A stretch of 64,000 nt of DNA from an uncultured Desulfobacterales bacterium (lineage in GTDB: Bacteria > Desulfobacterota > DSM-4660 > Desulfatiglandales > HGW-15): positions 9,140 to 73,139 of the forward strand of contig CAYPSZ010000424.1 in assembly GCA_964413125.1 (NCBI GenBank), in the 5' to 3' direction. The position numbers and the translations under genes were made by a program. Positions 3 through 24,039 of the stretch are shown here, in pieces. The number at the start of each line of letters is the position of its first letter. Within the stretch, counting starts at the first letter, position 1. The notes under the pieces were generated by a model, which did not search any database, was not told the DNA's origin, and saw only the letters and a program-made list of their open reading frames with translations.

Positions 3-233
3 CTTTGCGGATTATGTGTGCGGGTATGCGACGAAGTGGTGGGAATTCAAGCCATTTCCTTTGGTTCCAGAGGGGTTCACAAGCACGTTGCCACACCCTA
101 TATGGTCCCCAACCAGGCCTGCATCGCATGTGGTTCCTGTGTCACCGTCTGTCCAACCGGTGCCATGCAGGAACGCCTGGACAGGGTGAGAGGCGATGTG
201 GCGGAGCGAACCGGGCGTGGCTTCGCCCATTAA
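3..233 (+). CDS. 3' end of an Fe-S protein gene (NuoG / [FeFe]-hydrogenase N-terminal-type 4Fe-4S module); 5' end lies outside the window
   Basis: The frame-3 ORF runs off the left edge. Its translation ends ...NQACIACGSCVTVCPTGAMQERL..., a CxxCxxCxxxCP cluster motif. The stop at 231-233 is followed directly by the RBS of the next gene. Confidence 0.45.
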   Translation, partial: LCGLCVRVCDEVVGIQAISFGSRGVHKHVATPYMVPNQACIACGSCVTVCPTGAMQERLDRVRGDVAERTGRGFAH

Positions 234-244
234 GGAGGTGTAAA

Positions 245-2701: not shown

Positions 2702-2734
2702 GGCTTTAAGAAAAAACTTTACTCGCATTTAGAA

Positions 2735-2765
2735 GCCCCGGAATTGAACTCCCGGATTCCGGGGC
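2735..2765. terminator. Perfect 10-bp inverted repeat between convergent genes (possible bidirectional terminator)
   Basis: GCCCCGGAAT (2735-2744) and ATTCCGGGGC (2756-2765) flank an 11-nt loop. It lies between the stop of the + gene (2701) and the stop of hdrB (2861). There is no clear U-tract. Confidence 0.4.
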
Positions 2766-2860
2766 CTTACCGTGTAACTACCCGCTCAATCTGCAGTAGG
2801 CAGGTCTACTCCAGATCGAAGCATGGTTCGGACTGAAAATGCATAACGCAAGGCACCTCA

Positions 2861-3757
2861 TTATTCTTTATCAAAGTATGCTGCAAGCAGGTCTCGGGTC
2901 TTGACCACATTCATGTTAAGCCCCAGTTCCTTTCGGTCAAACCCCATGGCCAGGCCCAACACCTGTGTGAGGTAGAGCACCGGAAGATCGTAGTCTTTAT
3001 CAAAGGCCGTTTGGATACTCTTCTGGTTACTGTCCAACATCACCGAACAAAAAGGGCAAACCAGGCCTATGGCATCGGCCCCTGTCAGGGAGATATCATC
3101 CAATTTTTCCTTGGCCACACTGAGGGCTGTCTGTTCATCCACCGGAAGCACCGGGCCGCCGCAACACCTGTTCTTACCCGGATAATCCACCGTTTCCGCT
3201 CCGGTCAACGCCGTCAGGGTATCCAGGCTTTGTGGATTGTGCGCGTTATCAAAGCAGTCGTATATTTCCGATGGTTTCAAATAATGACACCCGTAATGGT
3301 TGGCGATTCTGATCCCTTTCAAGCTCTTGGTAAAAAGTGGCTTGATATTTTCAGGTCCTATCTCTTCGTATAGGATGCGGGCAAAGTGCCGGACCTTGAT
3401 GTTGCCCTCAAATTTGACCCCTACCTTTCCCAGACGCCTGTTGACCGCCTGTCGAGCCTCTTCATCTTCCGCCAGGCAATGGGCCGTCTCGGTCAATGAC
3501 GATGCACAGGAGCTGCACAGGGCGCAGAGGTCCAGCCCTTCCTGTTGCGCCAGGGCCAGGTTATAGGCGGCCAATACCAGGGCGGTTTCCCGGTCGGAGT
3601 TCTTTATGGGAAAACCGCAGCAGATGAACCGATCCAGGTCCACCAGCTCGATGTCCAGTTTCTCGGCCACCCTTCTGGTGGACATCTCGTAGTTACGGGA
3701 CCGCGCCGGTATGGTGCACCCCAGAAAAAGCGCGTAACGCAATGGAGTCTTCAACAA
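2861..3757 (-). CDS. hdrB: Heterodisulfide reductase subunit B-like (two CCG domains)
   Basis: 298 aa. CCG-type cysteine motifs are present (FICCGFP, NRCCGGP, VCPFCSVML) and it sits directly downstream of hdrC. Confidence 0.8.
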   Translation of the reverse strand: MLKTPLRYALFLGCTIPARSRNYEMSTRRVAEKLDIELVDLDRFICCGFPIKNSDRETALVLAAYNLALAQQEGLDLCALCSSCASSLTETAHCLAEDEEARQAVNRRLGKVGVKFEGNIKVRHFARILYEEIGPENIKPLFTKSLKGIRIANHYGCHYLKPSEIYDCFDNAHNPQSLDTLTALTGAETVDYPGKNRCCGGPVLPVDEQTALSVAKEKLDDISLTGADAIGLVCPFCSVMLDSNQKSIQTAFDKDYDLPVLYLTQVLGLAMGFDRKELGLNMNVVKTRDLLAAYFDKE

Positions 3758-3796
3758 AACCCTCGCTCACAGGAGTGAATTATGGGAGCCGGCGGC

Positions 3797-4264
3797 TCAT
3801 GGAAAAAGCTGTTCGGCTATATCGCAGTGTGTTCTAAGTACCGGAAGGCCTGCTTTCTTTCTTTTCTTGCTGTCAAAATCATCCAAGGGATAGATGCGCC
3901 CCTCCTTTCGCACCACATCCTGCTGGGCCCGAACCCCTGCGGGCATGTGCCCCGTCTTAAATGCAATGTTCTTAAGAAGGGTCATAATTTCTGTAATTCG
4001 AACGCCCTGAGGACAGCTCTCTTGACATGTATAACATCCGGAGCATAGCCAGATGAAATCACTTGCCAGGATCTCCTCTCTCAATCCATAAAGAGCCATG
4101 CGGATGATTCGGGCCGGATCAAATCGGTAGTCTACGGCCTTGACCGGGCAACTTGCCGAACATGTCCTGCAAGCCATACAGGCCGTGAAAAGATGGCCTG
4201 CGGGCTGCCTGAGGAGTTCATTTTTGAAAGACGGATCCGTGTTTTCAAGATCAAGAACCACCAT
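3797..4264 (-). CDS. hdrC: Heterodisulfide reductase subunit C-like (2x[4Fe-4S])
   Basis: 155 aa with CMACRTCSASCP and CSGCYTCQESCP motifs in the typical HdrC arrangement, adjacent to hdrB. Confidence 0.75.
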   Translation of the reverse strand: MVVLDLENTDPSFKNELLRQPAGHLFTACMACRTCSASCPVKAVDYRFDPARIIRMALYGLREEILASDFIWLCSGCYTCQESCPQGVRITEIMTLLKNIAFKTGHMPAGVRAQQDVVRKEGRIYPLDDFDSKKRKKAGLPVLRTHCDIAEQLFP

Positions 4265-4275
4265 GGCTTTGACCC

Positions 4276-5751
4276 TTAATCCTCGGTCAGAGGCAGATAA
4301 AAATGGAAGGTGCTACCTTGATCAAGGGCGCTTTCCACGCGGACCCGGCCGTTGTGGGCCTCGAGAATACTCTTGACTATGGGCAGCCCCAGGCCGGTCC
4401 CGGTAATAAACATGGTCTTTTCGCTCTTTACCCTGTAGAAGCGATTGAAAATCTGATTGAGATCTTTCTTATCGATCCCGATGCCCGTATCCTGAACGCT
4501 TATACGCAGATAGTGACCTTCCACTCTTGCCGACACCGTTACCCGCCCACCCTCAGGGGTATAGTGGATTGCGTTGGTTATGAGATTTGACAGGACTTCT
4601 TCCATATTGGGTCTGTTAGCCACCACCGACGGCAGTTTAGGCAAAGGCGCCGACTTAAGATGTATGTTTTTCTCCTGCGCTTTGGCATCGTGAAAGGCGA
4701 TCTGATCCGCAATGAGCATAGCCATGTCCAGTGCCTCCTTTTCCTGCGTGATCAGGCCGGACTCGATCTTGGCAAGGTCAAGGAGCTCCGATGACAGATC
4801 AGTAAGGACGATAATCCTCTTTGAGGCCCGATCCAAAATCTCTTTCTGCTTTTCCGTGACTTCTCCGGCAAGGCCGTCTTGAAGCACCTTGAGTTGGGCC
4901 AGAACCGAGTTCATGGGGCTTTTGATTTCATGGGCCACCATGGAAACGAAATTGGATTTGATCCTGTCCATTTTCTTTAGGGCCGTAATATCGTGCAGGA
5001 GAGTAAGGGCCCCAAGATTACGACCGAGGCGGTCGCGGAAGGGGACACAGCGGGCGCCCAGAACAATCTCCTGCTCATCTCCCCTGGCTTCGAAGTCCAA
5101 CTCCCCGGTCAGTTCCACGAACCGGTCTTCCGGCATGGCCAGGGCCTGGTCAATCATAACCAGAAGTCTATCGTCGCGAACGCAATCGGCCACGCTTCGC
5201 CCGATGACCTGGGCTCCGTGGTAACGCATCATTTTCAGAAAAGCCGGGTTGGCCAAGGCTACTCGCTTGTTCATATCCACGGCCATGACCCCGCTGTCGA
5301 GCTGGTTGACAAGCACGCGGATCCGCGACTTTTCGTGAGCGATGTCCTGCAGCGTTCGGGTATACTCCATGGCCTTGTAGACTATCAATCTGAGCTGGTC
5401 CGGCGCGAACGGCTTAGGGATGAAATCGAAAGCGCCTTTCTTCATGGACTCGATTGAATGTTCCACCGTGGCATATCCCGAGATCACTATGATAACGGTG
5501 TCCGGGTGGAGACCCTTGACGTGACCCAGGACATCGAAACCGGACAGTCCGGGCATCATCAGATCCAGCAGGATGATATCGTAGTGGTCCTTCTCGATCA
5601 TCTCAATACCGCGATTGCCGTCTTCGGCCAGGGCCACATCAAAGCCTTCCTCGGTCAGGACCTTGTGACAACCCTCCCTGATACGCTTTTCATCATCTAT
5701 AATGAGGATCCGAGGATGAAAAATATGCTTTTTGGTTGTATTTATATTCAC
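4276..5751 (-). CDS. Hybrid response-regulator receiver - PAS - HisKA - HATPase histidine kinase
   Basis: It has an N-terminal receiver (ILIIDDE...DIILLDLMMPG), an H-box (SMVAHEIKSPMN), and N/G boxes (LITNAIHYTP, DTGIGI, GTGLGLPIV). Its start overlaps the upstream stop by 4 nt. Confidence 0.8.
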   Translation of the reverse strand: MNINTTKKHIFHPRILIIDDEKRIREGCHKVLTEEGFDVALAEDGNRGIEMIEKDHYDIILLDLMMPGLSGFDVLGHVKGLHPDTVIIVISGYATVEHSIESMKKGAFDFIPKPFAPDQLRLIVYKAMEYTRTLQDIAHEKSRIRVLVNQLDSGVMAVDMNKRVALANPAFLKMMRYHGAQVIGRSVADCVRDDRLLVMIDQALAMPEDRFVELTGELDFEARGDEQEIVLGARCVPFRDRLGRNLGALTLLHDITALKKMDRIKSNFVSMVAHEIKSPMNSVLAQLKVLQDGLAGEVTEKQKEILDRASKRIIVLTDLSSELLDLAKIESGLITQEKEALDMAMLIADQIAFHDAKAQEKNIHLKSAPLPKLPSVVANRPNMEEVLSNLITNAIHYTPEGGRVTVSARVEGHYLRISVQDTGIGIDKKDLNQIFNRFYRVKSEKTMFITGTGLGLPIVKSILEAHNGRVRVESALDQGSTFHFYLPLTED

Positions 5752-7277
5752 ATCAAAGCTTCCTTTAATATCTCAAAACGGCCATTTTCAGGAATAAAGA
5801 GAGGAAGTTCAATCAAGAAGGTGGTTCCTTCAGGACCTGTCTTTTTGATTGAAATTTCACCTCCGTTTTCTTTTACTATCCCGTACGCCGTGCTCAAACC
5901 CAGGCCTGTTCCCTTTCCAGTACCCTTAGTGGTGAAAAACGGATCAAAAACCTTTGAGATGTTTTGCTCCGGGATACCGCTTCCAGTGTCTGAGATCTCC
6001 ACATACGCCCTTTTGGCACCCCTGTCACGGTATGTGCGAAAAGTGAGAGTCCCTCTTCTTTCCATGGCGTCTATGGCGTTCATGACCAAATTGATGATCA
6101 CCTGGCTAAGCTGATTCATGTCCGCGTGAATCAGCATCATATCCTCTGAAAGATCCATTTTTACAGCAGTGTTGATGAAAAGCTTTTGATCACGAATGAG
6201 CCCCAACCCCTGTTCAACCAGGGAATTCAACTGAAAAATCTCCATTTCAGGCGCAGCTTGGCGGCTGTAAGCCAGGAGGTTCTTGATAATGCTCTTACAT
6301 CGGTTGGCATCTTCGAGCACACACTCCAGATCCTCCCTGTAATCGCTTGCCTGGTCGAGCCGCTCGAGAACAATGTTCAGGTAGAGAAGAATGCCTGTCA
6401 GGGGGTTGTTGAGCTCGTGGGCCACACCGGCCGCAAGTTGTCCCAGGGAAGCCATCTTCTCAGAGTGAACAAGACGGTTCTGTGCGTCCTTGAGCTTACG
6501 TTCAACGGCAAGTCGCTCCCTGAGGTCATTGTAGATCCCCATGGTGGCCACTTCTTGGGTCCCCTCATAAATTATGGCGGCCGTAATCTCGACAGGAATC
6601 GATTCGCCGGATGCATTAATGATTTCCACCTTGGTTACGGGCAGTTTTCCCTTTGCGCTGATTGATTCATCTCGAAGCATTCTCATGATATCCCGGGCTT
6701 TGCCAGGGGCGTACACCTGTTCCACATTCTTCTTGCCCAGAACACGCTCAATAGGATAACCGAACAACTCCTCTGCAGCCCGGTTCATGAAAAGTATCTC
6801 CCCGCTCATATTCGCGGCCACAATCGCACTTGGTGAGCTCTGGAGCACCTCCTCGAAGAACTCTTTGGTTTCTCGAAGCTCCTTCTCCAGTTTCTTGACC
6901 CTGGTGACATCCCGGATACTCTCCATGACATAAAGAACACGTCCCATTTCATCCAGAATAGGCGAGAAAACCCTTTCCTCCCAGCGCTCTCCGGCGCCCC
7001 CGAATGTCGTCTGCATCACCAGGCTTCTTGGCTTTCCGTCTTTGACGACCTGGGCAAGGGGGCACTGGTGCATGGTGCAAGGTTCATCCAGTTCATAAAA
7101 GGCCTTGTAGCACATCCTGCCCACAATACCGTTCATCCCGCCGAACTTTTTGAGAAAGACCTGATTCACACTTACGATGGTCCTGTCGGTGTTCAGGATG
7201 AGTGTTGGAAAAGAGAGCGAGTCAAATACTCGAATTCTCCAGTCTTTCTCTGTATCAATCTTTTCTCGCTTTATCAT
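5748..7277 (-). CDS. PAS/PAS sensor histidine kinase
   Basis: Two PAS-like segments, an H-box (AAGVAHELNNPL), and ATPase motifs (NLVMNAIDAM, DTGSGIP, GTGLGLSTAYGIV). Confidence 0.8.
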   Translation of the reverse strand: MIKREKIDTEKDWRIRVFDSLSFPTLILNTDRTIVSVNQVFLKKFGGMNGIVGRMCYKAFYELDEPCTMHQCPLAQVVKDGKPRSLVMQTTFGGAGERWEERVFSPILDEMGRVLYVMESIRDVTRVKKLEKELRETKEFFEEVLQSSPSAIVAANMSGEILFMNRAAEELFGYPIERVLGKKNVEQVYAPGKARDIMRMLRDESISAKGKLPVTKVEIINASGESIPVEITAAIIYEGTQEVATMGIYNDLRERLAVERKLKDAQNRLVHSEKMASLGQLAAGVAHELNNPLTGILLYLNIVLERLDQASDYREDLECVLEDANRCKSIIKNLLAYSRQAAPEMEIFQLNSLVEQGLGLIRDQKLFINTAVKMDLSEDMMLIHADMNQLSQVIINLVMNAIDAMERRGTLTFRTYRDRGAKRAYVEISDTGSGIPEQNISKVFDPFFTTKGTGKGTGLGLSTAYGIVKENGGEISIKKTGPEGTTFLIELPLFIPENGRFEILKEALM

Positions 7278-7313
7278 GGTTTTTATTATACTCTTATGAA
7301 CCCTTAAATCAAA

Positions 7314-7838
7314 TTAACTTACTTCTTTCGAACATTGACCCGTTGGCGGCAGGAAAGCCTTGGACAGGGCTTCCCTGGCCTCAGCCATCCGCGCCTCGGT
7401 CAGCACCAGGTAGATGGAAGAGGCTGAGCATGCGATCCCCAGGATCGGCACTTTGCGCTCCATCAGGGTATTCAATGCCGCAGCGGCTATTCCATACCGG
7501 TCCCCGAAATGCGGCCCGTAGAATTGGATCAGACAGGCGGGGTAATAGCTTGTCACGTTGTTTGCGGCGGCATCACCCAAAAATCCCCTTATAATACGGA
7601 TCGTTTCATCCTCCCATTGCCGCTCAACAAGAAGGCCGAATTCAATGGGCCCGCCCGCAAGGCCCTGACCCAGGACCAGGAGCATCCTCATGTCGGGTTC
7701 CCTCGTGTCCTGAATGCATGATCCTAAACGGGACAGCGATTCAGGGGAAGCACTCCACTGAATCAGTGCCAGCCCGGCGACCTCACTGAACCCATAGGTC
7801 TTGATCCTGTCTTCCCAGTAGACGGCGACGGTTTCCAC
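7314..7838 (-). CDS. ACT-domain-like small-molecule-binding protein (tentative)
   Basis: 174 aa. The C-terminal block LIQFYGPHFGDRYGIAAAALNTLMERKVPILGIACSASSIYLVL...AREAL resembles aspartokinase-type ACT domains. Assigned by motif memory only. Confidence 0.4.
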   Translation of the reverse strand: METVAVYWEDRIKTYGFSEVAGLALIQWSASPESLSRLGSCIQDTREPDMRMLLVLGQGLAGGPIEFGLLVERQWEDETIRIIRGFLGDAAANNVTSYYPACLIQFYGPHFGDRYGIAAAALNTLMERKVPILGIACSASSIYLVLTEARMAEAREALSKAFLPPTGQCSKEVS

Positions 7839-7895
7839 TCCTCACCTCCGCTGTTTGCCCGTGCAGTTAATCAGGAGCTGCGTCTCTCAAACAAC

Positions 7896-8435
7896 TTACA
7901 GACTTTCAGGAGGCTCCTCCCCATGCCTTAACGGACTTTGGGTAACGTGGAAATGATTGCGAATGGGTCTCTGGTTCGGCGGCATATGGAAGATCCCCTC
8001 CAAAGCTGCAGCCGCAGCGTCGAGAACGGCGTAATCCAAGACAAAAGTCAGGGGTGCCAGTGATGATGTCAGTCCATGGACGCTCAGCCCCGCCTTACCC
8101 AGCGCATGGAGGGACAATCCGAGTATCTGCAGCCTAAACCGGTGGGGGAAGACCGACAAGAGGCCCACAGCGGGAATGAATTCGATATGCCCGGCCAGGT
8201 CCGGGTCTTCACCAATGAAAGCCCTCGCTCGACCAAAGTCCTCCATGTCAACACAACAAGAGCTCCGGGAGCGGCCGCTGCGGCACATCGCTGAGATGAA
8301 GGGGATGTTGATTCGATTCGAGGCCAGGATTTTACACAGCCGAAAAAGCGCAAACTGAGGACGGGGATGACTCGCCACGTTTACCAAGGCGAGTTCCCCG
8401 CTCAACTTTATCCCTTCAATCCGAATTTTTTCCAC
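7896..8435 (-). CDS. ACT-domain-like protein, distant paralog of the downstream gene (tentative)
   Basis: 179 aa with two ACT-like blocks (LALVNV...ILASNRINIPFIS and LLSVFPHRF...LGKAGLSVHGLTSSLAPLTFVL...AAAAL) that align to the pattern of 7314-7838. Confidence 0.35.
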   Translation of the reverse strand: MEKIRIEGIKLSGELALVNVASHPRPQFALFRLCKILASNRINIPFISAMCRSGRSRSSCCVDMEDFGRARAFIGEDPDLAGHIEFIPAVGLLSVFPHRFRLQILGLSLHALGKAGLSVHGLTSSLAPLTFVLDYAVLDAAAAALEGIFHMPPNQRPIRNHFHVTQSPLRHGEEPPESL

Positions 8436-8479
8436 CTTGCGCGTCCGCCAACCGGCATACTGCAGAACAAATGCGTCGG

Positions 8480-8866
8480 CTAGGAGGTGTAGGTGTCGAC
8501 GATGTCCATCAGCTTGTCCAGATCTATGGGTTTGGGAATGAAATCATCCGCCAGAGTAGTAATTCCGTCCCTATGCATATATCTGGTCGTGGTCACGGCC
8601 TCACCCACCGCGGTTAGCAAAACTACGGTTATGTCTTTGTAGTCCGGATCTTTTTTAATCTCATCGCACAACTGGTACCCATTCTTGTTAGGCATCATCA
8701 CGTCCAGGATCAGAAGCTTAGGTCTTTCCTCCTTGATCTTATCCCAAGCCTGAACACCGTCATAGGCCTTGGCAACCCGAAAACCCCTGTTTTCAAGCTT
8801 CATGGACACGGCTTCAACCAAGTCCGGATCATCATCCACCACTAGAATAAGCTGCTTATGGGTCAT
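8480..8866 (-). CDS. Stand-alone CheY-like response regulator receiver
   Basis: 128 aa with the LVVDDDPD...LLILDVMMP...KP receiver signature and no output domain. Confidence 0.85.
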   Translation of the reverse strand: MTHKQLILVVDDDPDLVEAVSMKLENRGFRVAKAYDGVQAWDKIKEERPKLLILDVMMPNKNGYQLCDEIKKDPDYKDITVVLLTAVGEAVTTTRYMHRDGITTLADDFIPKPIDLDKLMDIVDTYTS

Positions 8867-8892
8867 TGTCTATCTCCTTCGAGGTTATAGTG

Positions 8893-9816
8893 TCACACCG
8901 TGGGTCTGGGCAGGAGGCCTGCCCGCTCCACGATTTCCGGGACCTTCTGCTCCCACTCAATGGCCATGATGTGAAAACCACTCACACCTTTGACCTCCTT
9001 CAGCCGCTGCATATCCTCCACAGCGATCTTGATTCCCTCTTCGGCCTGGTTCTCTTTGGGAACCCCGGCCATGCGTTTAACTACGCCATCGGGGACGTCC
9101 ATTCCGGGCACGCGGTTCTTCATGTATTTGGCCATGCCCGCCGATTTCATGGGGGTTATGCCCGCCAGGATGTAGACCTGCTCGTGGAGCCCCCGATCCC
9201 GAACCCCTTCCATCCACTTCTCGAACTTGTCCAGATTGTATATACACTGGGTCTGGATGAAATCCACGCCCGCCTTGACCTTCTTGGCCAGTCGGGGCAC
9301 CCGAAGCTCGAAGGGGTCTGCAAAAGGGTTGGCGGCCGCGCCGATGAACATCTTAGGGGGATTCAGGATGTCGTCTCCGCCCTGGAACTTGCCGTCGTCC
9401 CGCATGGTTCTGACCGTCTGGATGAGCTGGATGGAATCCAGGTCGTACACGTTGGCGGCTGTGGGGTGGTCCCCGAACTGCGGGTGGTCTCCGGACAGGC
9501 AGAGCATGGTGTTGATGCCGTGTGCATAAGCCCCGAGAATGTCACTCTGCATGGCAAGGCGGTTGCGGTCCCGGGTGACCATCTGCAGGATAGGGTCAAG
9601 TCCCATCCGGGCGATCAGAATACAGGCCGCAAGGCTGCTCATGCGGACGACGGCCGTCTGGTTGTCCGTTACGTTGATTCCGTCTACGACCCCCCTGAGC
9701 ATCTCAGCTTTCTCTTTAACCTTTTCGGGCACGGAACCCCTGGGGGGACCGCACTCCGAGGTGACCGCCAGGTTGCCGGATGTCAGAATCTTTTCCAGTT
9801 TGCTTTCGGTATTCAT
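8893..9816 (-). CDS. metF: Methylenetetrahydrofolate reductase, acetogen/MetFV type
   Basis: The ATG at 9816 overlaps the metV stop (ATGA). The translation MNTESKLEKILTSGNLAVTSECGPPRG...VTDNQ...RDRNRLAMQSDILGA...LSGDHP is MetF-like. The longer ORF to 9954 lies inside metV and is rejected. Confidence 0.85.
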   Translation of the reverse strand: MNTESKLEKILTSGNLAVTSECGPPRGSVPEKVKEKAEMLRGVVDGINVTDNQTAVVRMSSLAACILIARMGLDPILQMVTRDRNRLAMQSDILGAYAHGINTMLCLSGDHPQFGDHPTAANVYDLDSIQLIQTVRTMRDDGKFQGGDDILNPPKMFIGAAANPFADPFELRVPRLAKKVKAGVDFIQTQCIYNLDKFEKWMEGVRDRGLHEQVYILAGITPMKSAGMAKYMKNRVPGMDVPDGVVKRMAGVPKENQAEEGIKIAVEDMQRLKEVKGVSGFHIMAIEWEQKVPEIVERAGLLPRPTV

Positions 9817-10481
9817 GAGGCCAGATCCTCTCTGATTATTCTTCGGGGACCGCCGTCCCGGCTCGTTCGCCAATCCTTGGGAGGGGTAATGTCCTCGTAG
9901 CGGCTTTCCAGTCCAAGGGCCTTCAGCCGATCCCAGATCAACTGCCACGCACAATCCACGTCAGGGCTGATTTCGCACTTTCCGTTGGTGGAACCGCCGC
10001 AGGGCCCGTTGAGCAGCCGTTTGGAGCACCGGGCGATGGGACAGATCCCCCCTGTCAAGCCGAGGAGGCAGTCTCCGCAGCCCTGGCAGCGCTCCGCCCA
10101 GACACCCTGGCGTTCCGAGGCCCCCATGAACTTGGTGTTCACCGCGGGAAAAACAGGTGTTTCCCTGAAGCGTTTTGCCACTTCCTGGACTCCACACCCG
10201 CAGGCCATGGACAGGACCGCATCGGCCCGATCTATGGACGTCACCAGCTCCTCCACATACTCCGGATCGCACTGCCTCTCCAGGGTCATCTCGATCAGGT
10301 CCAGGGTCCTTCCTTCCTTCATGCGGGCCATCTGGAGCGCGGAGGAGAGCAGGGCCACCTCCTTGCGTCCGCCGGCCGCACACACGGTCACGCACTCGTT
10401 GCAGCCCACGAGAATGATGCGGTCGTAAGGCTCGATGTACGCGAGGATTTCTTCAAGGGGTTTCCGCTCAGCTGTAATCAT
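9813..10481 (-). CDS. metV: MetV, Cys-rich small subunit associated with MetF
   Basis: 222 aa with Cys clusters (GCNECVTVCAAGG, CQGCGDC, GGICPIARC, NGPCGGS...GKCE), directly upstream of and translationally coupled to metF. Confidence 0.8.
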   Translation of the reverse strand: MITAERKPLEEILAYIEPYDRIILVGCNECVTVCAAGGRKEVALLSSALQMARMKEGRTLDLIEMTLERQCDPEYVEELVTSIDRADAVLSMACGCGVQEVAKRFRETPVFPAVNTKFMGASERQGVWAERCQGCGDCLLGLTGGICPIARCSKRLLNGPCGGSTNGKCEISPDVDCAWQLIWDRLKALGLESRYEDITPPKDWRTSRDGGPRRIIREDLAS

Positions 10482-10505
10482 GTCCTTTTGTCTCCTTGCT
10501 CGTTA

Positions 10506-10952
10506 CTATGAAGCAACGGCGGCTCGGGCCCGCCCGGCCAGGCTATCCTTGACAGGGTTGGGTCCCAGGCTGCGGATTTTGTCCGTGAACTCACCGGCGA
10601 TGAGGGCGAACCGTTCACCCATGCCGGCGGAAAGCGTGACCATTTCCACCCGGTCCGGCCCGATTCCGATTTCGTCCAGCATGGCTTTGACATGCGTGAC
10701 CCTTTTGGCCGCCTTGACATTGCCGTCCTTGAAATGGCAGTCCCCCTCGAGACATCCGGCCACGATCACGCCGTCGGCCCCTTTTTCCAGAGCCCGCATG
10801 ATGTGAATGGCTCCGACCTTCCCGGAGCAGGGGACCTTTATGATTTTGACATTCGGGGGATAACACAGCCGCATAGTCCCGGCCATGTCGGCCGCCGTAT
10901 AGGCACAGTAGTGACAGCAGAATGCGACAATGACAGGATCGAACTCTTTCAT
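10506..10952 (-). CDS. mvhD: MvhD-like (methyl-viologen-reducing hydrogenase delta subunit family) electron-transfer protein
   Basis: The ATG at 10952 overlaps the hdrA stop (ATGA). The translation MKEFDPVIVAFCCHYCAYTAAD...IKVPCSGKV...VIVAGCLEGDCHF is the MvhD/FlpD signature. Confidence 0.85.
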   Translation of the reverse strand: MKEFDPVIVAFCCHYCAYTAADMAGTMRLCYPPNVKIIKVPCSGKVGAIHIMRALEKGADGVIVAGCLEGDCHFKDGNVKAAKRVTHVKAMLDEIGIGPDRVEMVTLSAGMGERFALIAGEFTDKIRSLGPNPVKDSLAGRARAAVAS

Positions 10953-13900
10953 GCGAACATTCCTTCCAGCAGGCCGTACACCTTGGCCAGGATCTGATCG
11001 TCTTCGTACTGCATCAATTGAATTGCACCCGCCGGGCACTCGGCCGCACAAAGTCCGCATCCGTGGCACTTGGCAGGGTCGATTTCCGAGTAGCCGTCCG
11101 CGTTGATAAAAGGCACATCAAAGGGGCAGATGCGCACGCAGATCAGGCATGCCGCGCACTTTTCCCCCTGGACCTTCGCCACGGAAGCTCCCAGGTTGAT
11201 TACATCCCTGGCCAGGAGGGTCTGGGCCCTGCCGGCCGCGGCCTGGGCCTGGGCTATGCTCTCACTTATGGACTTTGGAGAATGGGCCGTGCCTGCAACG
11301 AAAAACCCCGGCGCTGCGAGGTCTACAGGCCGCAGCTTGATGTGATCCTCCAGGAAATATCCGTCCACCGTTCTGTTGAGGTGAAAGATGGCGGCGAGGT
11401 CCTCGGTGGCTTCGTCGTCGGCCATAAAACCGGTGCTCAGGGCCAGGCAGTCCGCCTCGACGCGGATCTTACGGCCCAGGACCGGGTCGGTGAAGGTGAC
11501 CTTGACACGATCGCCGGCCGCCTCCACCTGGGGCTGGTCGTCCATTTCGTAGTGTACGAACACTACGCCTTTCTCCCTGGCCCTTCGATAGGCGTCTTCC
11601 TGGAACCCGTAGGTCCTGATGTCCCTGTTGAGGACGAACACCCTGGCATCCGGGCTAAGGTCAAGAATCCGCAGGGCGTTTTTCACCGCCGACTGGCAGC
11701 AGACGCGCGAGCAATTGGGGTTGTCTTCGCAGCGGGACCCGACACACTGGATCATGACGCTGTTTTTCCATGAACGGACATCATCGGTGCGATCCTCGAT
11801 CACTCCGTCCAGGTCCAGCTGTGTGAGCACGGCCTTGTGCTCGTCAAGAAGATAGGCCTTGGGCCGGCGCGGCGGGGCACCCGTAGCCAGGATGGCCGCA
11901 CCGTGGGTGAGTTGCCGGTAGGCCAGTCTCGGGCCGAACTGAATGCCCGTTTTGAACATGCCGGGCATGCCGGAGTGGTCCACGATAACTGCGTTCAGGA
12001 GCACCTGTATGTTGTCGTGGTTCTTGACCCGCTCGACAAGGCCCTTCATGTATTCCTGAACGTCTTCTCCTTCAAGGGTCTTCCTTATGCCGCCGGCTAC
12101 GCCGCCCAGCGCTCCGGATCGTTCCACCAGAAAGATCTTGTACCCCTTGTCGCCGAGCCTGAGGGCGGCGTTCATACCTGTAACGCCTCCTCCCACCACA
12201 AGGATATCCTTGTTCATGGGGAGGACGTGATCGGTGAGGGGGCGCGAGAGAGCCGCGCTGGAGACCGACATCCGGATCAGGTCATAGGCCTTGTCCCGGG
12301 CCTTTTCCGGGAGATCTCCGTGGACCCAGGTGTCCTGGTCCCTGAGGTTGGCGATTTCCACCAGGTACTTGTTGAGACCGGCCTTTCGCACGGTGTCCTG
12401 AAACAGGGTCTCGTGAGTCCTGGGGGAGCAGGCTCCCATGACCACCCGGTTGAGGCCCTTTTCCTGAATGACCCCTTGGATGTGCTCCAGAGACTCACGC
12501 GAGCACCCGTGACCCACTACCTCGGCGGTTGCCACCCCGGGAAGTCCCCCGGCGTACTCCGCGACCTTGGTAACGTCGATGAGACCGCCGATGTTGTAAC
12601 CGCAGTCACACACAAAGACCCCGATCCGGGGTTCCGCGTCCCGCACATCACGTTCCGGCGGGAGCGCGTCCGGTTCCTCTTCCGGGAATTCGTCTTCCGT
12701 CTCAATCGTTTTTTCCGACATGCCCTGGTAGTCCGACGCCAGGCAGGCGGCCGCGCTCGCCTGGACCATGGTCTCAGGAATGTCCTTCGGACTCTGGATC
12801 ACACCGGCCACGTAAATCCCTTCCCTGGATGTGGCCACGGGATCGAAGCTCGTGCTCCGTGCGAACCGGTGTTCGTTGAGTTCGATTCCCAGGATCCCGG
12901 CCAGCGCTTCCATTTCGGGGGAAGGCCTGAAGCCGGTGGCAAGGACCGCCATGTCGAATACGGCCTTTTCCGTTCGGCCGTCGTCGGTCACATAGGTGAT
13001 GGAGAGGTCCCCGGTGTCGCCCACCGGTTCAATGCTGTGAGGGCGGCAGCGCACGAACCGGACGTTGAAATCCCTTTTCGCGCGCTCATAGTAGAGTTCG
13101 TAGTCCTTTCCGCAGGTCCGCATGTCCATGAAAAAGACCACGGCCTCGATCTCTTCCTGAAAACGCTCCTTGGTGACCACGGCCTCTTTCAGGGAGAACA
13201 TACAGCAGGCGCTCGAGCAGTACGGCACATCTCCCTGGTTGATGCCGCGGGAACCGGCACACTGGATCCAGGCGACCTTTTGGGGGGCCTTTTCGTCCGA
13301 TGGACGAATCAGCCGGCCCTGGGTGGGCCCCGAGGCGGACAGGATACGTTCGTATTCAAGGCTGGTCACTACGTTGGGATACAGTCCGTAGCCCCAGTTG
13401 GCCACCACCCCCGGATCGAACAAATCCGCCCCCGTAGCCAGGACGATGGCGCTCACATCCAAAACAAACTCCCTGGGCCGGTCGTCCGGAAGGATGGCCT
13501 CGTCCCTGCAGACCCCTACCAGGGCGTCCACATCCTCGCACCGCTCCATGTCTATGGAATAGGCGTAGGGTGTGGCCTGCGGATATCGCATGCAGGTGGG
13601 GGCTCGGTGATCCAGCCCCGGAGAAAACCTGACGCATTCGGGAAACTGCTTGAAACACTCACCACAGGCCGTACAACGGTCTGTGTCGATGTACCTGGGT
13701 TCCGTGGTCAGGGTGACCCTGAAATGACCGGCCTCGCCTTCCAGGCCGGTGACGCGGGTCAGTGTCCGAAGCTCCATGTGAAGCTCACGGCCGCTCTCCG
13801 AGAGAAACGGGGAAAGGGTACAAAGGTCACAGTTATTTGTGGGAAAGGTCCGGTCCAGCTGAGTCATGAGACCCCCGATGGCCGGAGCTTTGTCTATGAG

Positions 13901-14011
13901 GATGACGTCGCGCTTGGCCTCGGCCAGGTCCAGGGCTGTCTTGATGCCTCCCATGCCGCCGCCTATTACCAGCACCTTGTTGTTCCACGGAAAACGCTCT
14001 TGATCTTCCAT
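10949..14011 (-). CDS. hdrA: Large HdrA-like flavoprotein with two tandem HdrA modules
   Basis: 1020 aa. It has two FAD dinucleotide motifs (VLVIGGGMGG, ILVVGGGVTG) and two HdrA cysteine signatures (CAGSRGINQGDVPYCSSACC, CVGSRCEDNPNCSRVCC). A central CDCG insert domain (VFVCDCGYNIGG) and C-terminal 2x CxxCxxCxxxCP motifs are also present. Confidence 0.85.
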   Translation of the reverse strand: MEDQERFPWNNKVLVIGGGMGGIKTALDLAEAKRDVILIDKAPAIGGLMTQLDRTFPTNNCDLCTLSPFLSESGRELHMELRTLTRVTGLEGEAGHFRVTLTTEPRYIDTDRCTACGECFKQFPECVRFSPGLDHRAPTCMRYPQATPYAYSIDMERCEDVDALVGVCRDEAILPDDRPREFVLDVSAIVLATGADLFDPGVVANWGYGLYPNVVTSLEYERILSASGPTQGRLIRPSDEKAPQKVAWIQCAGSRGINQGDVPYCSSACCMFSLKEAVVTKERFQEEIEAVVFFMDMRTCGKDYELYYERAKRDFNVRFVRCRPHSIEPVGDTGDLSITYVTDDGRTEKAVFDMAVLATGFRPSPEMEALAGILGIELNEHRFARSTSFDPVATSREGIYVAGVIQSPKDIPETMVQASAAACLASDYQGMSEKTIETEDEFPEEEPDALPPERDVRDAEPRIGVFVCDCGYNIGGLIDVTKVAEYAGGLPGVATAEVVGHGCSRESLEHIQGVIQEKGLNRVVMGACSPRTHETLFQDTVRKAGLNKYLVEIANLRDQDTWVHGDLPEKARDKAYDLIRMSVSSAALSRPLTDHVLPMNKDILVVGGGVTGMNAALRLGDKGYKIFLVERSGALGGVAGGIRKTLEGEDVQEYMKGLVERVKNHDNIQVLLNAVIVDHSGMPGMFKTGIQFGPRLAYRQLTHGAAILATGAPPRRPKAYLLDEHKAVLTQLDLDGVIEDRTDDVRSWKNSVMIQCVGSRCEDNPNCSRVCCQSAVKNALRILDLSPDARVFVLNRDIRTYGFQEDAYRRAREKGVVFVHYEMDDQPQVEAAGDRVKVTFTDPVLGRKIRVEADCLALSTGFMADDEATEDLAAIFHLNRTVDGYFLEDHIKLRPVDLAAPGFFVAGTAHSPKSISESIAQAQAAAGRAQTLLARDVINLGASVAKVQGEKCAACLICVRICPFDVPFINADGYSEIDPAKCHGCGLCAAECPAGAIQLMQYEDDQILAKVYGLLEGMFA

Positions 14012-14058
14012 TGCTTACCTGTCGTCCATTCTGGTCGAGTTCATTTACCGGTTTGAGA

Positions 14059-14931
14059 TCACATGCCTGCGAAGTCAAGGATGCTTGGAAGCTCATGCTC
14101 CCATCCCAGCGTGACGATCTGAACGCCCTGGGCTGCGCCTTTCAAGTCTTTGACTGTCTCCCCGGCGATTTTAATACACTCCATCTCACGGTTTTTCGCC
14201 TGTCGAATGCGCTGAATAAGGGCTTCTGAAATGCGATAGGCCGGAAGGGTCGTGGCCATGTAGCGCGCGATGCCCACAGACTTCAAAAGAAACACCGTGG
14301 GAATGATCGGCACCCCAAGCCCCTTGGCCTTGTTTGCCAGCGCTGCGAAGGCCTCGAGGTCGAAGACCGGTGGAGACACGATGAATTGGGCGCCCGCATC
14401 CACTTTTTTCGCGGCCGCCCCCAGTTGCGCCTCCAGGGCCTTGTCATCCGCGTAAGGTTCGATGGTGCACCCGACCGTAAAGGTTGGATTGCCCTTGAGA
14501 TCGATACCGGCCATGTCAACACCATCCTGGAGCGATTTGATTCCCTTCAACAACTCCAGTTCATCAAGGTCGTTCACTGTTTTGGCGTCGAAGTGGTCCC
14601 CGTAAGCCATTTCCTCGCCGCGGACCACCATGATATTCTGAACGCCCAAGACGTGAGCGGACAGGAGTTCCGCCTGCACGGCCAAACGGTTTCTGTCGCG
14701 GCAGCATACATGAATAATGGCTTCCATGCCCTGCTGCTGCATGAGAACACCACCACCGAGGGCACTCATTCTCATCATCCCGTCGGCCATGTCGGGGATT
14801 ACGACGGCGTCTACACGGCCCTTGATTCGCCGAGCATGGGTGATCAGTTCCGAGATGTCCACTCCTTTCGGGGTGTCCATTTCCGCCAGGATCACGAACT
14901 CACCTGAGGCCAAACGTTTCTGAAAACTCAT
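14059..14931 (-). CDS. Second methylenetetrahydrofolate reductase-like paralog (no adjacent MetV)
   Basis: 290 aa. CCRDRNRLAVQAELLSAHVLGVQNIMVVRGE aligns with the RDRNRLAMQSDILGA block of the metF at 8893-9816. It is the first gene after the sigma-54 promoter. Confidence 0.75.
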   Translation of the reverse strand: MSFQKRLASGEFVILAEMDTPKGVDISELITHARRIKGRVDAVVIPDMADGMMRMSALGGGVLMQQQGMEAIIHVCCRDRNRLAVQAELLSAHVLGVQNIMVVRGEEMAYGDHFDAKTVNDLDELELLKGIKSLQDGVDMAGIDLKGNPTFTVGCTIEPYADDKALEAQLGAAAKKVDAGAQFIVSPPVFDLEAFAALANKAKGLGVPIIPTVFLLKSVGIARYMATTLPAYRISEALIQRIRQAKNREMECIKIAGETVKDLKGAAQGVQIVTLGWEHELPSILDFAGM

Positions 14932-15058
14932 GGCTTCCCTTTCTTTTCCAATGGATAGGGATCATCATGAATGCGTGAAAGTCGTTGTTTCACGTATTCA
15001 CGTGATCCCGCTGATTCCCGTCAGGGGGTCGCACCCCATGAGCGCAAGCCCAGTCTCA

Positions 15059-15073
15059 GCAAGTTTGGTGCCA
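15059..15073 (-). promoter_or_regulatory. Sigma-54 (-24/-12) promoter for the metF2-hdrA-mvhD-metVF cluster
   Basis: The minus strand reads CTGGCACCAAACTTGCT, i.e. TGGCAC-N5-TTGC with canonical spacing, about 130 nt upstream of the start codon at 14931. Confidence 0.6.
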
Positions 15074-15163
15074 GGGCTGGATGGGCCTCCAAAAAGGAGT
15101 TATCCGTCTGTTTTTATATGATAAAAAAATATACAGGCAGATGGAAGAGCGGCTCCATGTAAT

Positions 15164-15208
15164 TGCAATTCAGCAAATAAGGATGTTGGCGGTACTGCAA
15201 TTCTGCAA
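15164..15208. promoter_or_regulatory. Direct repeat TGCAATTC(A/T)GCAA x2, candidate enhancer (UAS) for the sigma-54 promoter
   Basis: The 13-mers at 15164-15176 and 15196-15208 differ at one position and are spaced 32 bp apart. They lie about 90-135 bp upstream of the -24 element, with an A/T-rich tract (about 15111-15134) between. Confidence 0.3.
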
Positions 15209-15223
15209 CAGCCGTTAACACCT

Positions 15224-15946
15224 CTATTTGAACATTGTCAACCTTTTTGTCCCAAGGATCTGCCTGAAATTGGCGCCCTGGCTCACACAGCAAAGGGCAA
15301 GGGAAGTATCGACCACCCTGGTTCCTGAGACGGCGTCCAGGCCGTAGTCAAAGAGGACGGGGGTGAGAGGAGTTGTGTCGCCCAGCATTATGACATAAGC
15401 CGAGGGTGAGCACAGGGAAAGCAGACCCTCCAGCGTGTGGTTTGTAAGGGACGTCCCGGTTATTGCAACCACATCCGCTTGTGGAATGAGGTCGCCGGCC
15501 TGCTCCTCCCCAAAATCGCCTTCCCAGGGGTTTTTCTCGATGACCCACAACTCCTTTGCTTTTCTTCTCACCCTGGAAAGAAAAGGAAAATGGCCTACGA
15601 CGGCTATTCTCCTCCCTTCGCCTTTTTCCAGTATGAGATCGGCGGCATTTAACTCCAGGCAGTCCGGTTTGTCAACCGCGATAAGGGAATTTATGGCGGC
15701 CATGCCGATGGCCGCTTCAAGGATGCTGTCTGAATATGCCATCCCGGTCAGTTCTTCGGGTGTCTTTTCTAAAAGACGCCCGGGCTCTTTGACCAGGGGA
15801 GGTGTCTGACGCAGGGCGTCGCGGGGCAGGTTGGCTGCGAGCCCGCAGTTTCGGGTCAGTACGCCGGTGTGGAAAACCCCCTGGCGTACATCTCTTACCG
15901 GCGCGTCAAGATCGAGTGTGGATATCAGGTGATCGATGATTCTCAT
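15224..15946 (-). CDS. DUF364-type protein (putative metal-chelation / Rossmann-like domain)
   Basis: The ATG at 15946 overlaps the upstream stop (ATGA). The pattern MRIIDHLIS...AAINSL...IAVVGHFPF...DVVAITGTSLTNHTLEGLL matches my memory of the DUF364 family. Confidence 0.55.
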   Translation of the reverse strand: MRIIDHLISTLDLDAPVRDVRQGVFHTGVLTRNCGLAANLPRDALRQTPPLVKEPGRLLEKTPEELTGMAYSDSILEAAIGMAAINSLIAVDKPDCLELNAADLILEKGEGRRIAVVGHFPFLSRVRRKAKELWVIEKNPWEGDFGEEQAGDLIPQADVVAITGTSLTNHTLEGLLSLCSPSAYVIMLGDTTPLTPVLFDYGLDAVSGTRVVDTSLALCCVSQGANFRQILGTKRLTMFK

Positions 15947-16809: not shown

Positions 16810-16824
16810 TAAAACTGCTCCTTT

Positions 16825-18107: not shown

Positions 18108-18169
18108 TTTATTGCCCCCTAATAGGACCAACTTTAATCTCTCAGCGTCTGAAATACAGTTTCTGCAGG

Positions 18170-19641: not shown

Positions 19642-19696
19642 GATTAGACCTCCTTGAAATTGTGAGTGATGCGCAAGGGCGGGGGCCGCACAAAAA

Positions 19697-22635: not shown

Positions 22636-24039
22636 ATGAAAGATAAAGACAGGCGTTACTTGGACCCCAGCTTTTCAGACCTGCTGCTGGAGTCCATGGC
22701 GGACGGCGTTTTCACGCTTGATGAAGAAGGAAGGATCACCTCCTGGAACCCGGCCATAGAGAGGATAACCGGGTATTCGGCCGGTGAGGCGGTAGGCAGG
22801 CCTTGCACATTGATGAATTTTACCCGCTGCTTTCAGGAGAGCTGCCCCACGGGTATTGAAGAGTGTGGGATCTTTCAGAACGGAAGGCTCGACGGGAGAG
22901 AGTGTTTCCTGCGCCACAAAGAAGGGCATGATGTACCTGTCATAAAGAGCGCCAGGCTGGTGAGGGACGAGGGCGGCTGTTTAAAGGGAGTGGTCGAGAC
23001 CGTGACCGATCTCACCGAACTGGAAAAGGCGCGCAGCAAAGCTGAAGAGGCCGCCCGGCGTCTGGGGGAGATCCACAGGTTCGACAATATAATAGGGAAA
23101 AGCCATGCCATGCGCCAGGTGTTTTCGGCGATCCGGGCGGCGGCTGCAAGCGAGGCCACCATACTCATCCAGGGTGAAAGCGGGACCGGCAAAGAGCTGG
23201 TGGCCGGGGCCATACATCACAACAGCACGCGAAAAGGTATGCCGTTTGTGGCCGTAAGCTGCAGTGCGCTTTCCGAGACCCTTCTGGAGAGTGAACTCTT
23301 TGGTCATGTGAAGGGGGCGTTTACAGGTGCCATTAGGGATCGCATCGGGCGTTTTGAAGAGGCTGACGGCGGCACCATATTCCTGGACGAGATCGGGGAG
23401 ATCAGCCCCTTCATTCAGGTCAAGCTCCTTCGCGTGTTGCAGGAAAGGGAGATCGAGCGTGTCGGGGAATCCAGGAAGCGCAAGATAGACCTCAGGATTA
23501 TTACGGCCGCGAATCGCGAACTAATCCAACTGGTCAAAAACGGCGATTTTCGGGAAGACCTCTTTTACAGGCTAAGAGTCTTTCCCATCACAATTCCTCC
23601 CCTTCGCGAGAGAAAAGAGGACATCCCTTTCCTGATAAATCATTTCATCAACCGCCAGAATAACAAGACGGGAAAGAACATCAAGGGGGTCACGCATGCC
23701 TCCCTGAGGGTTCTCATGGATTACACCTGGCCCGGAAATGTCCGCGAGTTGGAAAACGCCGTGGAGCATGCCTTTGTCCTCTGTTCCGGGCATAACATTG
23801 ATGTGTTCGATCTGCCGGTGGAGGTTCGCCAGCTTGCATACAGGCCGGATGCCTCCGGAGGCCAAGTTTCCAGGCAGGCACACGCCATGCCCGGGTCTGG
23901 GCTGTCACGCGAAGTTTTGCTGGATGTCCTCAATGAGTGCGGTTGGAACAAGGCCGAGGTGGGGAGGAGGGTCGGCCTAAGCCGTACAGCCATTTGGAAG
24001 TACATGAAAAAGTGGGACATCCCCCTCAAAAGAACTTAG
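22636..24039 (+). CDS. Sigma-54-dependent transcriptional activator (PAS - AAA+ - Fis-type HTH)
   Basis: GESGTGKE Walker A, the GAFTGA loop (VKGAFTGA), and a C-terminal HTH ([21 protein letters not shown]). The N-terminal PAS domain carries a Cys-rich stretch. Confidence 0.85.

Follow-up and report, generated by a model that had tools for sequence, protein, structure and literature searches.

Hdr-type methylene-tetrahydrofolate (methylene-THF) reductases have been described from Sporomusa ovata (MetFV-HdrCBA-MvhD; Kremp et al. 2022, PMC9430772) and Moorella thermoacetica (MetFV-HdrABC-MvhD; Mock et al. 2014, via PMC9430772 and PMC9012536). The S. ovata HdrA (942 amino acids, aa) contains an extra thioredoxin-reductase-like (TrxR) module with E160/K216 and an HdrA part without the inserted ferredoxin, while the Moorella HdrA (1487 aa) has an added GltD-like insert (PMC9430772). 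Fused HdrAs, including that of Moorella, exhibit a complementary loss of Cys197 and of the N-terminal domain (PMC9012536), and hdrABC genes are frequently not co-localised with metFV-mvhD (Poudel et al., PMC6085437). Here we describe a related locus in an uncultured Desulfobacterales bacterium: twelve co-oriented minus-strand open reading frames (ORFs; positions 2861-14931) within a 64-kb stretch of contig CAYPSZ010000424.1, the whole of which was analysed and is referred to as the window. We assign a probability of roughly 0.6 to the reading that this locus is a Desulfobacterota Hdr-type methylene-THF reductase operon with an integral, conserved sensing module and sigma-54/activator control.

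The catalytic part of the cluster is a member of the known Hdr-type methylene-THF reductase (MTHFR) family, and its fused HdrA has already been described. The literature that we searched contains no discussion of signalling genes or of a second MetF beside this cluster; the D. autotrophicum genome paper provides only a figure-legend listing of 'response regulator, histidine kinase, CheY-like regulator' at hdr loci. Undescribed in this literature are the clade-wide linkage of receiver (REC), ACT and histidine kinase (HK) genes to the reductase, the extra MetF2 and the variable or absent hdrBC.

A twelve-gene cluster of the Hdr-type methylene-THF reductase family

ORF listing, translation and Pfam scans resolved the following genes, given here from metF2 to hdrB.

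14059..14931, minus strand: metF2, 290 aa, full-length Pfam MTHFR match (3e-27), without a MetV of its own
10949..14011, minus strand: hdrA, 1020 aa, asymmetric fusion with two TrxR/FAD modules
10506..10952, minus strand: mvhD, 148 aa, Pfam FlpD (9e-51), ATGA overlap with the hdrA stop codon
9813..10481, minus strand: metV, 222 aa, Pfam DUF5981 (MTHFR C-terminal; 7e-39)
8893..9816, minus strand: metF, 307 aa, Pfam MTHFR (8e-40), ATGA overlap with metV
8480..8866, minus strand: single-domain CheY-like receiver, 128 aa, Pfam Response_reg (3e-25)
7896..8435, minus strand: tandem-ACT protein A (X), 179 aa, no Pfam match, ACT by predicted fold
7314..7838, minus strand: tandem-ACT protein B (ACT2), 174 aa, sub-threshold ACT_9/ACT_7 matches
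5748..7277, minus strand: HK1, 509 aa, PAS-PAS-HisKA-HATPase kinase by Pfam
4276..5751, minus strand: HK2, 491 aa, REC-PAS-HisKA-HATPase hybrid kinase by Pfam, 4-nt overlap with HK1
3797..4264, minus strand: hdrC, 155 aa, Fer4_8, start 11 nt past HK2
2861..3757, minus strand: hdrB, 298 aa, two CCG domains

After start-codon refinement, the successive gaps from metF2 to hdrB are 47, -4, 24, -4, 26, 44, 57, 36, -4, 11 and 39 nt. The first-pass annotation of this DNA had reported twelve co-oriented minus-strand genes, and their order, tight spacing and domain content are borne out by the ORFs and Pfam matches. Its classification of the locus as an Hdr-type MetFV/HdrA/MvhD(/HdrCB) methylene-THF reductase cluster is likewise supported, with all of the features that define the type at sequence level present, as are the embedded two-component/ACT unit and the operon-like spacing behind a sigma-54 promoter. 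The same twelve genes occur in the same order on a near-identical Joint Genome Institute (JGI) contig (L090) and in a metagenome-assembled genome (L009; 93% HdrA identity), and the arrangement is therefore no assembly artefact.

Both MetF proteins fall inside the MTHFR family; the placement of both outside it, which the earlier annotation had named as an outcome that would speak against its reading, was not observed. Their Pfam MTHFR matches are full length and above the 24-bit cutoff, and the best NCBIfam match of each is the MTHFR half of PRK08645. MetF is 71-96% identical across Desulfobacterota loci, and the second paralogue that had been noted is indeed present, full length and 30% identical to MetF. 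Glu106 of MetF2 is invariant and has Asp110 as its MetF counterpart. A MetF2 glutamate that we take, from alignment by eye, to correspond to the catalytic Glu28 of Escherichia coli MetF is conserved in at least 80% of orthologues. The metV gene stands directly before metF (MetV is 100% identical in L009), and mvhD adjoins hdrA. HdrC (1e-23 against a solved HdrC) is canonical, with two [4Fe-4S] motifs, and so is HdrB, which matches a solved HdrB over its full length (6.5e-71).

The window cluster has the same MetF, MetV, MvhD, HdrB and HdrC as the S. ovata enzyme and, like it, an HdrA of about 1000 aa with a Glu/Lys-containing N-terminal TrxR/FAD module and a C-terminal HdrA part without inserted ferredoxin. 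Unlike in S. ovata, the N-terminal module retains a one-cluster ferredoxin remnant (Cys113, 116, 119 and 168), a second metF precedes hdrA, the promoter is of the sigma-54 type, and hdrCB, instead of preceding hdrA, comes last at the far 3' end, behind the five signalling genes. The S. ovata subunits have been studied by purification or pull-downs (PMC9430772), whereas the window complex is predicted from its genes. The Moorella cluster comprises the same six protein families and, like the window, a fused HdrA from which Cys197 and the N-terminal domain have been lost in a complementary manner, but its 1487-aa HdrA with the GltD-like NAD(P)H/FAD insert matches a second type of Desulfobacterota locus (type 2, below; e.g. 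L047) and not the window. Relative to methanogen HdrABC-MvhAGD (PDB 5ODC, 8RVU), HdrB and HdrC are canonical and all HdrA subdomains are recognisable, but these subdomains are distributed over two non-identical modules and there is no hydrogenase.

The fused HdrA consists of two complementary modules

Alignment to solved HdrA shows how the 1020-aa protein is assembled. Residues 10-376 correspond to residues 151-517 of solved HdrA (thioredoxin-reductase-like FAD domain plus inserted ferredoxin), residues 458-631 to 9-182 (N-terminal 4-Cys domain and start of the FAD domain) and residues 838-1014 to 478-652 (end of the FAD domain and C-terminal di-cluster ferredoxin). The two halves share 23% identity. 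They had been annotated as two complete HdrA modules, and both do carry the CxGSR...CSxxCC signature, yet neither is complete. The N-terminal module (residues 10-430) is a TrxR/FAD domain that lacks the N-terminal domain and the C-terminal ferredoxin and in which the inserted ferredoxin is reduced to a one-cluster remnant. The C-terminal module (residues 458-1020) comprises the N-terminal 4-Cys domain, a TrxR domain and the C-terminal 2x[4Fe-4S] ferredoxin; its TrxR domain lacks the inserted ferredoxin and the FPTxxCxxC motif and has Asp at the Glu position.

Residue conservation, measured in 47 orthologues, follows this division. The N-terminal module retains the FPTxxCxxC cysteines (C61, C64), the cysteines of the ferredoxin cluster (C113, C116, C119, C168) and the CxGSR...CSxxCC cluster, and its Glu221 and Lys275 are invariant. 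The C-terminal module retains the cysteines of the N-terminal domain, its own CxGSR...CSxxCC cluster and the eight ferredoxin cysteines. We propose that HdrA would act as a covalent pseudo-heterodimer, in which the N-terminal FAD module would contribute the retained Glu/Lys 'bifurcating flavin' signature as well as the Cys pair that serves as ligand to the N-terminal cluster of the partner in HdrA dimers.

Complementary domain loss in a fused HdrA is a known hallmark of Hdr-type methylene-THF reductases. The tandem HdrA, previously singled out as a peculiarity of this locus, is an architecture already described for these enzymes (PMC9430772, PMC9012536), and we found at least 120 clusters of 1010-1040 aa proteins that are 66-93% identical to the window HdrA. 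For an enzyme of this type, a tandem HdrA is therefore nothing unusual. The protein does not conform to the canonical methanogen-type HdrA, as its domains are split over two fused modules and its inserted ferredoxin holds one cluster, and it scores 831 bits against the NCBIfam HdrA2 model, the cutoff of which is 1100. No protein of the window cluster reaches an NCBIfam equivalog cutoff, and no curated name is therefore transferable.

Signalling genes accompany the reductase genes across Desulfobacterota

The first-pass annotation had portrayed the catalytic genes as interrupted by the five signalling genes (receiver, X, ACT2, HK1 and HK2; together, the cassette). To place this arrangement in context, contigs encoding HdrA relatives were compared and a MetF-alignment scan was conducted with one genome per species. 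The MetF scan identified at least 563 related loci, and 80 species-representative Desulfobacterota loci were compared. The twelve window proteins were mapped onto all compared loci (denoted by L numbers) by tblastn, and genes after metF were counted only in loci with enough downstream sequence.

The loci fall into two types. Type 1 loci encode an HdrA of about 1010 aa and have the order metF2-hdrA-mvhD-metV-metF-REC-(X-ACT)-HK1-HK2; they occur in Desulfobacteraceae, Syntrophobacteraceae, Desulforhabdus, Desulfoferrobacter, Desulfotignum, Desulfobacula, Desulfosarcina and Desulfatitalea. Type 2 loci, found in Desulfatiglandales and others, encode a 1394-aa Moorella-like HdrA with Fer4_20 and Pyr_redox_2 domains (a GltD/NfnB-like insert; L047, 4673-8857). 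The metF2 gene is in the same position as in the window in most loci of both types. A receiver gene directly follows metF in 41/43 type 1 and 17/24 type 2 loci, one or more ACT genes follow in 29/39 and 11/20, and both kinases in 28/33 and 1/14. By comparison, hdrC and hdrB do not follow metF or the cassette in any species-representative locus of type 1 (0/33) or type 2 (0/14), so that the HdrB and HdrC subunits that belong to the definition of an Hdr-type MTHFR are present in the window and not conserved in related species.

These counts show that the cassette has long been a conserved component of the operon on its 3' side and does not interrupt it. As judged from these sequences, the signalling genes are conserved companions of the reductase genes, and the 3' hdrCB is derived and lineage-specific. 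In type 2 loci, REC-X-ACT usually still lies behind metF; both kinases have moved upstream of metF2 in two loci (L080, L084), and an HK2-REC pair is found upstream in three others (L047, L063, L070). That REC-ACT-ACT remains behind metF while the kinases move indicates that the linkage survives rearrangement. Three loci (L082, L038, L076) have, within 10 kb of the first cluster, either another reductase cluster or an additional metV-metF pair.

The conservation of this linkage bears on two alternative explanations. One is that a Moorella-like contiguous metFV-hdrABC-mvhD cluster was split here through insertion of the five-gene cassette between metF and hdrCB. In its favour, metF and hdrC are physically separated by the cassette in the window, L009 and L090, and the Moorella and Sporomusa clusters are contiguous (PMC9430772). 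However, the cassette lies behind metF in 41/43 type 1 loci from many families, none of which has hdrC and hdrB behind it. Three loci (L059, L072, L086) do have a Moorella-like hdrC-hdrB-hdrA-mvhD-metV-metF order, and REC-HK2 still follows metF in L072 and L086 (the L059 contig stops 13 nt past metF); the hdrB products of these three loci are only 28-38% identical to the full-length, canonical window HdrB. No mobile-element remnants were found in the window cluster, and the gap between HK2 and hdrC is only 11 nt. Collectively, these features make a split cluster very unlikely.

The second alternative is that the signalling genes are unrelated neighbours whose adjacency has no functional meaning. 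The cassette lacks an output domain, and a weak sigma-70-like match precedes HK1 (7312-7285), albeit of a kind that is not enriched over shuffled sequence. Adjacency nonetheless holds in dozens of species and with both HdrA types despite rearrangement, all sampled ACT2 homologues occur in this context and some of the genes overlap by 4 nt, which leaves chance neighbourhood scarcely credible.

The 3' hdrC and hdrB genes are confined to the window's subclade

The hdrC-hdrB pair was found after HK2 only in L009/L090, within the window's own subclade, and in L009 hdrC overlaps HK2. An hdrC orthologue directly follows the cassette only in L009/L090 and L005/L006, and L005 has hdrC alone. L001/L093 have an inverted, isolated hdrC (68% orthologue) about 2.5 kb away and no hdrB. 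No hdrB pseudogene was detectable behind the cassette in L005 or L001. Elsewhere, there is a reduced hdrC'/hdrB' pair upstream, an hdrCB pair placed between metF2 and hdrA, or no such gene nearby.

A short hdrC-like gene is found about 1 kb upstream of metF2 in seven type 1 loci (L020, L025, L049, L052, L056, L077, L089). In L020 (1610-4783), the only one inspected gene by gene, a 243-aa hdrC-like gene is followed by a 193-aa hdrB-like gene with one CCG domain and preceded by a divergent PAS-sigma54 activator gene.

In the window, an ORF on the opposite strand (5-2701, plus strand) converges on hdrB. It encodes an 818-aa protein whose HdrA-type N-terminal 4-Cys domain is accompanied by a degenerate FAD fold and two Fer4 motifs; the protein also has an MvhD/FlpD domain (aa 655-777) and is extended at its C-terminus. 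On L090 (15735-20540), its counterpart is followed by a Fer2/Fer4 protein and then a NuoF-like protein. The convergent protein and its NuoF-like neighbours may constitute an NADH-linked Hdr-like module that lacks its own hdrBC.

This arrangement raises the question of whether hdrCB serves the convergent HdrA-like/MvhD fusion protein and its NuoF-like neighbours instead of the MetF complex. In the window, L009 and L090, hdrB abuts the gene for the fusion protein; other species lack hdrCB behind the cassette, and hdrC and hdrB have a G+C content at third codon positions (GC3) unlike that of hdrA-metF. On the other hand, hdrC lies 11 nt past HK2 here and overlaps it in L009, which suggests from the sequence that it is expressed with the cassette, and L005 and L001/L093 retain hdrC without a convergent HdrA-MvhD gene nearby. 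Dedication of hdrCB to the fusion protein is accordingly quite unlikely, and we favor an association of hdrCB with the reductase operon in this lineage.

Cassette proteins combine sensory domains with a stand-alone receiver

The cassette kinases and receivers have the sequence features of two-component signal transduction. In both kinases, the H-boxes (AHELNNP and AHEIKSP), with the phospho-acceptor His, and the HATPase_c domains are intact. The stand-alone receiver has the DD/D55/T/K residues, and both it and the HK2 receiver have the acidic pocket, phospho-acceptor Asp, Thr/Ser and Lys. Pfam identified no DNA-binding or enzymatic output domain on any of the five proteins, and among the compared loci no gene for a response regulator with an output domain belongs to the conserved unit. 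In HK1, Cys56, Cys67 and Cys72 of the first PAS domain (C-x10-C-x4-C) and Cys327 of the dimerisation helix are invariant in 45 orthologues, and the kinase probably senses a thiol, redox, metal or Fe-S state. At least 93% of sequences retain HK2 Cys28, HK2 Cys235 and, in the receiver, Cys67.

Both small proteins had been called ACT-like, which is right by fold, though Pfam is sub-threshold for one and silent for the other. Alignments of database homologues of X and ACT2 were used for AlphaFold modelling (AlphaFold2 mean pLDDT 87 and 84, respectively), and both models exhibit two beta-alpha-beta-beta-alpha-beta ACT units in tandem. Foldseek searches against the PDB returned aspartokinase regulatory subunits as top matches (E 5e-11 for X and 1e-9 for ACT2), with TM-scores for the leading matches of ~0.70-0.75 when normalised by the query and ~0.76-0.86 when normalised by the target. 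No NCBIfam ACT model matches either protein. X and ACT2 also share no similarity in pairwise BLAST, so that only profile comparison (hhalign probability 96.6%, E 6e-10) and the predicted folds reveal them as distant paralogues. The GPHFGDRYG motif of ACT2 has 7/9 residues invariant and the other two at least 90% conserved in a 29-sequence alignment, and even ACT2 homologues at 30% and 36% identity are encoded in a reductase-operon context, as are all those sampled.

The predicted tandem-ACT fold is the same as in the aspartokinase beta subunit and alpha-beta pairs (PDB 2DTJ, 5YEI, 3AAW, 2ZHO). As in alpha/beta aspartokinases, two different tandem-ACT chains are encoded side by side; unlike aspartokinases, X and ACT2 (12-20% identity to them) lack a kinase catalytic domain and reside in a redox operon with histidine kinases. 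By analogy, X and ACT2 probably form a heterodimer with small-metabolite effector sites at the ACT interfaces, for which an amino acid is the most likely ligand.

A conserved sigma-54 promoter precedes metF2

Upstream of metF2 we identified a promoter element and two repeats, and elsewhere in the window a candidate activator gene.

15059..15073, minus strand: sigma-54 -24/-12 promoter TGGCACCAAACTTGC, a perfect TGGCAC-N5-TTGC on the coding strand, intergenic
15196..15208, minus strand: candidate activator-binding repeat 1 (TTGCAGAATTGCA), a 13-nt direct repeat with putative function
15164..15176, minus strand: candidate activator-binding repeat 2 (TTGCTGAATTGCA), the second copy, with putative function
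22636..24039, plus strand: PAS-sigma54 activator, 467 aa, Pfam PAS, Sigma54_activat and HTH_8, no receiver

The -24/-12 element extends from 142 nt (first base) to 128 nt (last base) upstream of the metF2 ATG and is the sole exact match to TGGCAC-N5-TTGC in the 64-kb window, where 0.16 are expected. It is conserved at -143/-144 from the metF2 ATG in L001, L002, L005, L006 and L009, and a sigma-54 consensus also precedes metF2 or hdrC'B' leader genes in nine other type 1 loci (L012, L016, L020, L021, L023, L026, L028, L049, L062). In L020 and L049 the consensus lies ahead of the hdrC-like gene. The two direct repeats, TTGC(A/T)GAATTGCA, are 12/13 identical, 32 nt apart and situated ~90-135 nt upstream of the -24 element, from which an A/T-rich stretch separates them; L009 and L001 retain their half-sites TTGC and GCA, which L005 has only in part.

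Within the cluster, sigma-70-like sites (9 versus 6.1 in shuffles) and terminator-like sites (13 versus 12.3) are not above expectation, and no further sigma-54-like site was found on the coding strand. L009 and L001 show good conservation of the leader between promoter and metF2 ATG (14932-15058, minus strand; ~115 nt), which includes a GGGG-TGCGA-CCCC hairpin. A riboswitch or leader RNA was considered and rejected, as an Rfam scan of 2500-15400 at E<=1 was blank, with no THF or S-adenosylmethionine (SAM) riboswitch.

The PAS-sigma54 activator at 22636-24039 has a counterpart in the same place in L009 (91%) and a 71% orthologue directly behind HK2 in L031. PAS-type activators without a receiver are encoded divergently beside metF2 in nine loci (L008, L016, L020, L021, L023, L026, L028, L062, L092). 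The window activator is a candidate for acting on the metF2 promoter. Its neighbours on the minus strand (24188-27494) encode another PAS-sigma54 activator (582 aa) and a REC-PAS histidine kinase (514 aa) whose architecture matches that of HK2.

The presence of this promoter raises the possibility that the cassette is purely transcriptional, passing phosphate to a DNA-binding regulator or modulating the PAS-sigma54 activator, so that expression and not the enzyme is tuned. Consistent with this idea, the sigma-54 promoter is accompanied by repeats, activators are repeatedly adjacent, a second activator and another REC-PAS kinase are encoded at 24188-27494, and the closest NCBIfam models to HK1 are AtoS (best) and ZraS, kinases that pair with NtrC-type regulators (HK2 is nearest to PnpS and PhoR; all of these matches are below cutoffs). 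However, the adjacent activators have a PAS and no receiver domain and would therefore not accept phosphate directly, the conserved unit encodes no DNA-binding regulator, and the sole strictly conserved signalling gene is the single-domain receiver right after metF. We consider a purely transcriptional role possible but less likely. The sensing module of the operon bears some likeness, by analogy, to NtrB/PII/NtrC systems, in that a PAS histidine kinase, small putative ligand-binding proteins and a sigma-54 promoter with an activator would operate together; it differs in that the activator lacks a receiver, a stand-alone CheY-like receiver is present and ACT proteins take the place of PII.

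A model for a reductase operon with an integral sensing module

From the observed gene content, architecture, conservation, folds and promoter conservation, we infer a working model for the composition of the complex, the ligands, the order of phosphotransfer and the target of the receiver. The conserved catalytic core would consist of MetF2, HdrA, MvhD, MetV and MetF and operate in the Wood-Ljungdahl pathway's methyl branch. The HdrA flavins and MvhD would relay electrons between (methyl/methylene)-THF at MetF(V) and another redox partner. HdrBC is absent from most relatives, and the conserved core would therefore work without adjacent HdrBC. The 3' hdrCB would have been added in the window's subclade, and in this lineage only HdrCB would join the electron path, probably extending it to a thiol/disulfide couple by analogy with S. 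ovata and Moorella.

Transcription would initiate from the sigma-54 promoter, dependent on a PAS-type enhancer-binding activator. HK1 would provide a redox/thiol input and the ACT pair a metabolite input, and HK1, HK2 and the ACT pair would together set the phosphorylation state of the CheY-like receiver. Since the receiver has no DNA-binding domain, it would act through contact with a protein partner, which could be the reductase complex or the activator; direct control of the enzyme is the less likely of the two. Metabolite- or redox-tuned control of the operon, as suggested in the first-pass annotation, is a reasonable inference.

Several observations weigh against this overall reading. GC3 is 0.73-0.77 in hdrA, mvhD, metV and metF and 0.51-0.69 in metF2, the cassette, hdrCB and other window genes (a distant ORF at 24188-25936, at 0.72, is the exception), and the lower values of the cassette and hdrCB (0.51-0.65) could mean either that the core genes are more strongly expressed or that the flanking genes have a history of their own. 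A strict sigma-54 consensus was not found upstream of metF2 in many loci (e.g. L003, L007). The window activator lies 7.7 kb from the promoter, with nine other genes between, and is only 41-45% identical to activators that adjoin metF2 elsewhere. Neither ACT protein reaches the Pfam threshold (ACT2 scores 23.4 bits for ACT_9 and 22.9 bits for ACT_7 against a cutoff of 27; X has no match), and loci of the Syntrophobacteraceae type lack the ACT genes, which are therefore dispensable. A foreign origin of the cassette, an idea that arises from its low GC3, was rejected as the main explanation because the cassette is conserved clade-wide.

A more specific version of the model would have the phosphorylated receiver dock on the MetF-HdrA-MvhD complex and switch its mode in response to a thiol/redox signal and an amino-acid or one-carbon (C1) metabolite signal. 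Such a switch could be between oxidative and reductive operation or between MetF2 and MetFV heads on the non-equivalent HdrA flavin modules. We regard docking as doubtful; if true, it would be the first instance in which a flavin-based electron-bifurcating Wood-Ljungdahl enzyme is gated directly by two-component signalling.

The set conserved in the clade comprises MetF2, fused HdrA, MvhD, MetVF and the sensing module. The position of HdrBC outside this set thus constrains models of the complex, and the receiver, the two ACT proteins and the three-cysteine PAS kinase emerge as candidate regulators of carbon flow. Three of the carriers identified are in culture, namely Desulforhabdus sp. TSK (L016), Desulfoferrobacter suflitae DRH4 (L023) and Desulfatitalea alkaliphila M08but (L062), which makes experiments feasible. 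These observations should be useful to research on Wood-Ljungdahl bioenergetics in sulfate reducers and syntrophs, though they are not surprising in kind.

Other genes in the window

Three ORFs elsewhere in the window, at 28213-30735 (840 aa), 32586-33701 (371 aa) and 36441-39530 (1029 aa), have no Pfam match at 1e-8. Upstream of the promoter (15224-21976, minus strand) lies a gene set, common to L009 and L090, that encodes a DUF4213/DUF364 protein, two MinD/ParA-like ATPases with ferredoxin inserts, NifU_N, a NifX-like protein with DUF5320, DUF1638, a ferredoxin and a flavoenzyme with old yellow enzyme (OYE) and Pyr_redox_2 domains. This group looks like a cofactor or Fe-S maturation set.

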